Assembly: GCF_003018255.1 (NCBI RefSeq)
Contig: NZ_CP027440.1
DNA from: Escherichia coli
Lineage (GTDB): Bacteria > Pseudomonadota > Gammaproteobacteria > Enterobacterales > Enterobacteriaceae
Length of the DNA: 64,000 nt
Strand: one strand, 5' to 3'
The notes under the pieces were generated by a model. It was not told where the DNA came from. It saw only the letters and a list, made by a program, of their open reading frames with translations, and made no database searches. Numbering within the stretch: position 1 is the stretch's first letter; every line of letters starts with the position of its first letter. Position numbers and translations under genes: made by a program. Shown piece by piece: positions 58,112 through 58,534 of this stretch.

Positions 58112-58534
58112 GTGAAGCAATCACTGGGATTACTTGAAGTCAGTGGTCTGGCACTCGCCATCAGTTGCGCAGATGCTATGGCAAAAGCCGCGTCCATCAC
58201 GCTGGTTGGCCTTGAGAAGACCAATGGCTCAGGCTGGACGCTCATCAAAATCACCGGTGACGTCGCCTCGGTTAATGCGGCGATCGCGACGGGAGCCAGT
58301 TTCGCCGGACAGCGAAATGGCCTCGTCGCACACAAAGTGATTGCCCGTCCGGGAGACGGCATTCTGCCCCACACAACTGAAGCATTGACTGTGACGGTTG
58401 AAACAAGCGAAACACCAGCAACAACCGTCATCTCAGAGATTATCAGTTGTAATTTGTGTCTTGACCCGGCATGTCAGCGGCAAAAAGGTGAGCCCCGCTC
58501 ACTTTGCCTGCACGCCAATAAGCGAGGGGAGTAA
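58112..58534 (+). CDS. pduK: Microcompartment shell protein with C-terminal Cys-rich extension
   Basis: GTG start; BMC domain plus tail CNLCLDPACQRQ...CLH. Confidence 0.85.
   Translation: MKQSLGLLEVSGLALAISCADAMAKAASITLVGLEKTNGSGWTLIKITGDVASVNAAIATGASFAGQRNGLVAHKVIARPGDGILPHTTEALTVTVETSETPATTVISEIISCNLCLDPACQRQKGEPRSLCLHANKRGE

Follow-up and report, generated by a model that had tools for sequence, protein, structure and literature searches.

Background

PduK has repeatedly been described as a shell protein with a tail of four cysteines. For the Salmonella protein, the four Cys were located in the last 30 aa and considered a possible Fe-S site, and PduK was found to be poorly produced or unstable (Sargent 2013). 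The tetracysteine tail is likewise treated as a possible Fe-S site by Ferlez 2019 and in a 2025 Klebsiella study. The Fe-S proposal, and some experimental support for it in Salmonella, are credited by later papers to Crowley 2010; in the wording of these citing papers PduK 'may ligate' a cluster and this has been 'partly demonstrated'. Repeated descriptions since 2010 already cover the cluster of cysteines, its possible use as an Fe-S site, the start at GTG and the lack of a defined function for PduK. The original prediction for the gene studied here, a possible metal or Fe-S tail with a function that is not well defined, matches the published view.

Deletion of pduK gives microcompartments that are well formed but clumped at the poles, and growth on 1,2-propanediol equals that of the wild type at limiting B12 (Yang 2022). 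It was proposed in the same work that the flexible PduK extension, on the concave, outward-facing side, contacts other cellular elements. PduK is listed as a non-McdAB positioning factor in a 2025 review, and in a 2026 study ParA, MinD and heterologous McdAB were without effect on Pdu positioning, the mechanism of which is still to be found. Native-shell cross-links place the PduK tail lysines beside PduA and PduJ, no PduK homo-oligomer signal was seen, PduK may enter the shell as hetero-hexamers, and K. pneumoniae PduK co-purified with PduU only when beta-mercaptoethanol was left out (Klebsiella 2025 study).

The pduK gene and its product

The window, a stretch of 64,000 nucleotides of Escherichia coli DNA (RefSeq assembly GCF_003018255.1, contig NZ_CP027440.1), includes a complete pdu operon in the order pocR-pduF / pduABCDEGHJKLMNOPQ. 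The pduK gene is found mid-operon in the local gene order pduH-pduJ-pduK-pduL-pduM-pduN (Table 1). That the gene product is PduK, as first proposed, is essentially certain, given its position between pduJ and pduL in a complete pdu operon and its 73% full-length identity to an S. enterica homologue. Members of the same sequence cluster are called PduK by their sources in Citrobacter rodentium and Yersinia. A domain scan detected a single non-permuted BMC domain in one stretch and no other Pfam domain in the 140 aa, and residues 1-90 align with solved BMC-H and PduT chains, colinearly in the case of PduA, CcmK and CsoS1. RefSeq gives the same pduK coordinates in E. coli E2348/69, where the product is annotated as 'BMC domain-containing protein' [WP_000814165.1]. 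The 423-nt pduK DNA is 100% identical in E. coli LF82, E2348/69, NRG 857C and others, and of 5426 complete E. coli genomes 641 carry pduK, in every case on the chromosome.

Translation was predicted to begin at GTG, and this start is borne out: it is the sole start codon downstream of an in-frame stop, is preceded by a Shine-Dalgarno sequence 6 nt upstream, and agrees with the RefSeq coordinates. PduK records from JGI start 'VKQSLG...', and the GTG is conserved. In over-extended annotations from other Escherichia, Salmonella and Klebsiella this Val is internal ('...KEHSVKQS'), and the longer annotated N-termini run from an ATG a few codons upstream (e.g. MAANKEHSVKQS..., MTANKEHRVKQS...). This upstream ATG of other species is ATA in the window. 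Two candidate starts were weighed for Salmonella PduK, and GUG was preferred for its 'plausible RBS' (Sargent 2013); as only the GTG is usable in the window, the present sequence supports the GUG choice for the whole PduK family. A weak GTG start is consistent with low expression and with the published status of PduK as a minor shell component. It also fits a report that, in a heterologous host, a lower PduK level was key to shell assembly.

A promoter and terminator scan around pduK returned nothing relevant. A 118-aa antisense open reading frame (ORF) at 58075..58431 was rejected as a gene, being without support.

Table 1. Features of pduK and adjacent genes in the window, and the cysteine-free genes found at the pduK position in other loci (locus name precedes the coordinate).
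Feature	Position	Strand	Description
pduJ	57813..58088	+	Major BMC-H shell protein, directly upstream of pduK
pduK Shine-Dalgarno AAGGAG	58100-58105	+	6 nt 5' of GTG; read directly from sequence
pduK CDS	58112..58534	+	140 aa, GTG start, TAA stop at 58532-58534
BMC domain PF00936, residues 4-80	58121..58351	+	Pore-loop sequence TNGSGW; Pfam E = 5.5e-22
Acidic linker, residues 81-111, GDGILPHTTEALTVTVETSETPATTVISEII	58352..58444	+	Net -5, hypervariable length and sequence, predicted disordered
Putative cysteine knuckle, residues 112-134	58445..58513	+	S-C-N-L-C-L-D-P-A-C-Q-R-Q-K-G-E-P-R-S-L-C-L-H
Cys codons of the knuckle	58448-50, 58457-59, 58472-74, 58505-07
His134 codon	58511-13
Last six residues, ANKRGE	58514..58531	+	Codons hold pduL Shine-Dalgarno GAGGGGAG (58524-58531)
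pduL	58537..59169	+	Phosphate propanoyltransferase, GTG start 2 nt past pduK stop
Cys-less genes at the PduK position	L024 8120..; L064 7916..; L073 7774..; L091 7676..		PDU loci of Synergistetes, Clostridiales, Lachnospiraceae and Oscillospiraceae

Other features of the window

The first part of the window (approximately 1-22100) is a P2-family prophage with an integrase gene at 20882-22081. Between its P2-type portal/terminase genes and the GPA replication gene lies a 646-aa ORF (10461-12401, minus strand) that includes a reverse-transcriptase domain (Pfam RVT_1, E = 4e-31) and is annotated in matching E. coli genomes as 'retron Ec67 family RNA-directed DNA polymerase/endonuclease'. Four tRNA-Asn genes are located at 32236, 40395, 42219 and 44628. 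In LF82, an island of approximately 28 kb (L002 16694-44790) is found between tRNA-Asn and ldtA, and this island is absent from the window at 44708-44792. It contains integrase remnants, IS elements, a MazF-type toxin-antitoxin pair and large hypothetical proteins, as well as an ATP-dependent nuclease/UvrD pair and sugar PTS genes.

The segment that precedes pocR (45756-49100) has only cobT, cobS, cobU and a short hypothetical ORF, to which the LF82 annotation adds a cobalamin riboswitch. The long cbi operon that adjoins pdu in Salmonella is absent from this segment, and this E. coli must therefore import corrinoids to use the pdu operon. The pduC gene, which RefSeq annotates as an incomplete pseudogene in E2348/69 (L001 3625-5223), is an intact ORF of 554 codons in the window (52736-54400).

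The linker and the cysteine tail

A cysteine cluster had been predicted at the C-terminus after the BMC domain, and it is made up of Cys113, Cys116, Cys121 and Cys132, plus His134. The tail motif, SCNLCLDPACQRQKGEPRSLCLH-ANKRGE, is preceded by a 31-residue acidic linker (residues 81-111) rich in Thr/Glu/Pro. Residues 112-140 read SCNLCLDPACQRQKGEPRSLCLHANKRGE, and the tail with the four Cys and His134 is ...EIISCNLCLDPACQRQKGEPRSLCLHANKRGE. Linker and tail are oppositely charged, -5 and +2 respectively, and the same is seen across the Cys-bearing family, in which the linker is net negative in 98% (median -15) and the tail net positive in 84% (median +2). The linker varies from 15 to 57 aa among close homologues, where it is barely alignable, and from 25 to 208 aa among distant ones. 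In a full-length AF2 model the pLDDT of the linker was <50; this model, built from 51 close homologues, had a mean pLDDT of 46 and was discarded. When AF2 was run on the tail only, using 141 diverse tails, pLDDT reached 88-90 across the motif, and the prediction was free of regular secondary structure, as would be expected for a metal knuckle.

No match to the tail was found at E <= 10 in Pfam and NCBIfam. A search of PDB sequences with the tail profile returned only a chance-level match over 13 residues, and a search of the PDB with the tail structure returned no fold match. The tail therefore fits no known Fe-S or zinc family or fold in these Pfam, NCBIfam, PDB sequence and PDB structure searches, and for this reason the metal's identity rests on second-hand statements. 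Zinc knuckles and ribbons are defined by two CxxC knuckles or CX2CX4HX4C, together with a matching fold, and here there is a single CxxC within C-x2-C-x4-C-x10-C and no PDB match. We take the resemblance of the first three ligands to CX2CX4H to be one of spacing only. The conserved ligand set of an Fe-S protein, which is necessary but not sufficient for such an assignment, is present as four invariant Cys and a His in 138 of 143 tails.

Escherichia pduK alleles P0003, P0019, P0024 and P0026 predict proteins of 137, 131, 128 and 121 aa that carry in-frame linker deletions of different sizes and are otherwise near-identical. Some E. albertii-type alleles stop just past the fourth Cys (…SLCLLR, …LHSAK). 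Judged from these alleles, the linker appears to tolerate insertions and deletions, and the residues beyond the motif appear to be dispensable.

Conservation of the tail

The C-x2-C-x4-C-x10-C spacing is kept in all of the 120 closest full-length homologues, which are from Escherichia, Salmonella, Citrobacter, Klebsiella, Enterobacter and related genera, and the sequence SCNLCLDPxCxRQKGEPRxLC(L/I)H is nearly invariant among them. Conservation in orthologues was one point on which the original prediction could have failed, and among enteric orthologues no part of the extension is more conserved than the tail. The terminal KRGE is conserved in enterics, in which pduL is the immediate next gene, and not beyond them.

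A tail-only profile was used to search 1.84 billion cluster representatives and detected 275 proteins at E <= 1e-3. Among the best 149 of these 275, 129 have a BMC-type N-terminus and most of the others are N-terminally truncated fragments, the remainder including three spurious Cys-repeat proteins and one odd sequence of 351 aa (P0123). Tail-bearing proteins are 123-317 aa in length, and the motif is at the extreme C-terminus in every one of the best 149 of 275. The set of 143 distant representatives was recruited by the tail itself, and its conservation figures are thus partly circular: the Cys spacing is exact in 143/143, positions C1, C4, D6, C9, R11 and C20 are invariant, and N2 (142/143), G14 (142/143), H22 (138/143), K13 (136/143), P7 (133/143) and P16 (122/143) are close to invariant; the third Cys is followed by Pro in 93/143. 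Even so, the full invariance of non-ligand residues in these sequences exceeds what the score threshold demands. As a rough estimate that takes Cys as ~1% of residues, four Cys at fixed spacing would arise by chance in about 1 in 10^6 proteins of this size, and the exact spacing in 120/120 close and 143/143 distant sequences in any case rules out a chance origin. The median dN is 0.27 for the tail and 0.62 for the BMC domain; synonymous sites are saturated between the available loci, and for this reason the comparison is of dN only.

P0123, a single metagenome sequence, has an N-terminal portion of 280 residues that is unrelated and contains no Pfam domain, followed by an acidic stretch and then the exact Citrobacter-type PduK linker and Cys tail. 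It is the only full-length non-BMC tail carrier among the matches listed, and may be an assembly chimera.

Loci that carry the tail

Informative contigs were available for five diverse representatives that bear the tail, and in all five the gene is next to pduH, directly after it, in a B12-dependent PDU locus; such loci are rich in the Fe-S partners PduS and PduT. The gene order is H-K-J-L in Firmicutes-type PDU loci and H-J-K-L in Yersinia and E. coli.

A second, divergent PduK-like protein of 288 aa, also with a Cys tail, is encoded in E. coli GCA_003583685.1 (L011 10001-10867), and the cluster it belongs to (P0258/P0297/P0298) occurs in E. coli, Klebsiella and Citrobacter. The L011 locus is pdu-like and is built around a glycyl-radical enzyme (GRE) and its activase (AE), with the genes pduA, B, GRE, AE, MIP, J, K, L, M, N, O-C-terminal domain, P, Q and pocR, and has transposase genes on its flanks. 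Neither a PduS nor a PduT gene was found within 10 kb of the PduK-like gene. This arrangement agrees with the remark that GRM4 loci encode a PduK homologue though they are without PduS, PduT and GrpU (Ferlez 2019).

A cysteine-free form of PduK

A sample independent of the tail was assembled by fetching 80 loci via the neighbouring gene product, PduL; a Firmicutes sequence headed the query alignment, and sampling was consequently directed away from enterics. Eight of the 80 are BMC loci with PduC (true PDU), and in this small sample the tail was found in 4. It was found in 1 of 7 BMC loci with a glycyl-radical enzyme (Clostridium magnum), in none of 12 other BMC loci, and in none of 53 loci without BMC genes.

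The four PDU loci without the tail belong to Synergistetes, Clostridiales, Lachnospiraceae and Oscillospiraceae, and PduS and PduT are present in all of them. In each, the BMC-H protein at the PduK position has a long acidic extension, rich in Pro/Glu/Ala, that contains no cysteine motif and has a Lys/Arg end. The C-termini are ...QPRTRKHNNSKKQ; ...SAKGNRRGKNKRS; ...QKGRRGGKRNNKRETTE; ...KAARKAPAKRGKRKQ, and the net charge is -6 to -32 over the tether and +5 to +7 over the end. A homology search from one of these proteins gave a family, including Flavonifractor plautii and Lachnospiraceae members, in which the motif is absent from 120/120 matches listed (P0311-P0430). For these 120 listed matches, 95% are without any Cys in the extension, the median charge of the extension is -25, and 97% have a net positive charge over their last 20 residues (median +5.5).

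The BMC domains of the Cys-less proteins all find their best BLAST match (120/120) in Cys-bearing PduK rather than in PduA/J, but the median identities are equal (60.5% vs 60.7%), and this is weak support for orthology. Position is a stronger argument than the BMC-domain BLAST, and by position the Cys-less proteins are PduK orthologues. Judged from sequence, what the positional PduKs have in common is thus a BMC domain, an acidic disordered tether and a basic end, which has two versions, one of them the cysteine knuckle. Neither the Cys-less form with its basic tail nor the breadth and exact definition of the motif was found in the literature searchable here.

The 53 PduL-fetched loci without BMC genes are from Paenibacillus, Bacillus, Sporomusaceae and related organisms, and have no BMC shell gene within 9 kb of PduL (PTAC). 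As most of the fetched PduL homologues are not near a BMC shell gene, this phosphotransacylase family is widely used outside microcompartments.

Proposed function of the tail

On balance, it is probable that PduK is a minor BMC-H tile with a metal-organised tail that acts mainly as an external docking or anti-clumping element and is not an obligatory redox component. The BMC domain would insert into the shell of the 1,2-propanediol-utilisation microcompartment and, from canonical BMC-H topology and the proposal of Yang 2022, the C-terminus would leave from the concave, cytosol-facing side. The acidic disordered tether would then carry the 23-residue module outward, where the four invariant Cys and the nearly invariant His may hold a metal centre. 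Published Salmonella work, as represented in the papers that cite it, points to iron or Fe-S, and zinc is also possible. The metal would fold an otherwise structure-less, net-basic knuckle, which would dock externally and so account for the one role demonstrated for PduK, that of keeping finished microcompartments dispersed, not in polar aggregates.

The two parts of this proposal differ in strength. Given the conservation pattern and the predicted structure, the tail is very likely to be a Cys4(-His) knuckle organised by a metal. A role in external docking or against aggregation is more likely than an obligatory electron-transfer role, since the deletion phenotype concerns position, not metabolism; half of the tail-independent PDU loci are without the cysteines and keep the tether, the basic end, PduS and PduT; the motif ends a tether of up to ~200 residues, far from the pores; and the tail contacts other shell proteins in cross-linking data. 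Also counted in favour of docking is the persistence of the Cys tail in GRE locus L011, with no PduS/PduT within 10 kb. Counted against it are the suggestion of the Klebsiella study that PduK may not form homo-hexamers and the strict invariance of Asn, Asp-Pro, Arg and Lys-Gly, which exceeds the need of a generic basic patch, and these invariant non-Cys residues would also fit a specific cofactor site.

A rival reading is that the tail binds a redox-active Fe-S cluster that serves as an electron relay or in cluster delivery to compartment enzymes. In PDU loci it would serve PduS and the reduction of cobalamin, in glycyl-radical loci the radical-SAM activase, and it would act beside the PduT pore cluster or replace it. 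Four invariant Cys with Pro often after the third (93/143), and the wealth of Fe-S partners (PduS, PduT) in PDU loci, are in keeping with a relay, as are the citations of Crowley 2010 for possible Fe-S ligation and its partial demonstration, as worded in the citing papers, and the same suggestion by Sargent 2013. In the GRE locus L011 the PduK cluster could be the only shell Fe-S centre, as suggested for GRM4 (Ferlez 2019). However, loss of pduK leaves growth on 1,2-propanediol unchanged at limiting B12 (Yang 2022), and 4/8 tail-independent PDU loci, together with a large Cys-less family, have a Cys-free PduK extension, those four loci keeping both PduS and PduT. In addition, the motif is at the end of a tether of 25-208 residues, far from the pores and probably outside the shell, and has no similarity to a known Fe-S family or fold. 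A redox relay is considered rather unlikely, though it has to be taken as a serious rival. The docking and redox readings are also compatible with each other: with a labile cluster, docking could respond to redox state or to the supply of iron.

A further-reading version of the docking role is that the PduK extension is a self-contained positioning device, in which metal-knuckle and basic-patch ends are interchangeable on an acidic entropic tether and no ParA-type ATPase is involved. The basic module would bind a surface that is polyanionic or belongs to the shell, for example the nucleoid, RNA or adjacent shell tiles. The metal-folded Cys4-His knuckle would be the version used in enterics, Bacillus and many clostridia, possibly for redox- or iron-sensitive docking, and Lachnospiraceae, Oscillospiraceae and Synergistetes would have replaced the knuckle by a plain Lys/Arg patch. 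This version is speculative, and in its entirety is thought unlikely to hold.

It is very improbable that the cysteines are metal-free and form intra- or inter-tail disulfides or thiol switches that cross-link PduK tails or shell neighbours upon oxidation. The co-purification of K. pneumoniae PduK and PduU, which needed beta-mercaptoethanol to be absent, and the probable exposure of the tail to the cytosol would suit such a switch, but the enteric cytosol is reducing, the fixed spacing, conserved His and confident loop-only AF2 model are typical of metal knuckles, and iron is reported for Salmonella PduK, at second hand in the citing papers.

The window and Yersinia tails differ at 19/66 nt and by 5 aa changes in 22 codons, none of which is at a position conserved across the family, and this pattern rules out that constraint on the nucleotides alone is the explanation. 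Within the G-E-P-R-S-L codons there is a perfect inverted repeat of 6 bp around a 3-nt loop (GTGAGC-CCC-GCTCAC, 58488-58502), which is absent from the Yersinia gene and so is probably a coincidence of codon choice. The proposition that the conservation of the tail is chance or a by-product of nucleotide constraint (pduL ribosome-binding site, mRNA hairpin) rather than protein function, for which the hairpin and the overlap of the KRGE codons with the pduL Shine-Dalgarno could be cited, is effectively refuted by the nucleotide and amino acid changes in Yersinia, by conservation of the motif where pduJ, not pduL, is downstream, and by the enteric restriction of the KRGE end only.

Significance

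For the gene itself the finding changes little, as pduK has already been published together with its GTG start and four-cysteine tail, and well-studied E. coli strains have an identical sequence. PduK is the only factor implicated in Pdu positioning, the mechanism of which the 2026 paper calls unknown. The comparative pattern, in which an invariant knuckle or a plain basic patch always ends an acidic tether, sharpens the positioning question without answering it. The role of the tail also matters for the engineering of synthetic shells, in which the amount of PduK is known to be critical.

Comparison with known systems

The PduK proteins of Salmonella enterica, Citrobacter freundii and Klebsiella pneumoniae share with the window PduK the pduJ-pduK-pduL position, the GTG start and the C-x2-C-x4-C-x10-C-x-H tail. 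The linker of the window PduK is about the shortest in the family, at 31 aa compared with 40-57 aa in most Citrobacter and Klebsiella proteins, and the window pduK has no alternative upstream ATG; it does not otherwise differ from its enteric relatives.

The loss of McdB, which belongs to the McdAB system for carboxysome positioning, likewise makes microcompartments clump at the poles. However, McdB is a protein in its own right and acts together with a ParA-type ATPase, and a sequence relationship to PduK is not expected.

EutK, like PduK, is a minor single-domain shell protein with an extension that ends in a small basic module. The EutK extension is a nucleic-acid-binding helix-turn-helix, whereas the PduK tail has neither a helix-turn-helix nor a Pfam match, and the NCBIfam equivalog model for EutK scores PduK at 48 bits (cut-off 218) over the BMC part only.

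PduT is likewise a Pdu shell protein with a proposed Fe-S centre, encoded in the same operon. Its [4Fe-4S] cluster is held by one Cys per subunit at the central pore of the trimer, whereas in PduK a single span of 20 residues, with which a disordered tail ends, contains all four Cys.

The Cys-less PduK of Lachnospiraceae, Oscillospiraceae, Flavonifractor and Synergistetes shares with the window PduK the position after pduH, the BMC type, the acidic Pro/Glu/Ala tether and the basic end. It differs in having no cysteines and in ending with a Lys/Arg patch such as KGRRGGKRNNKRETTE.
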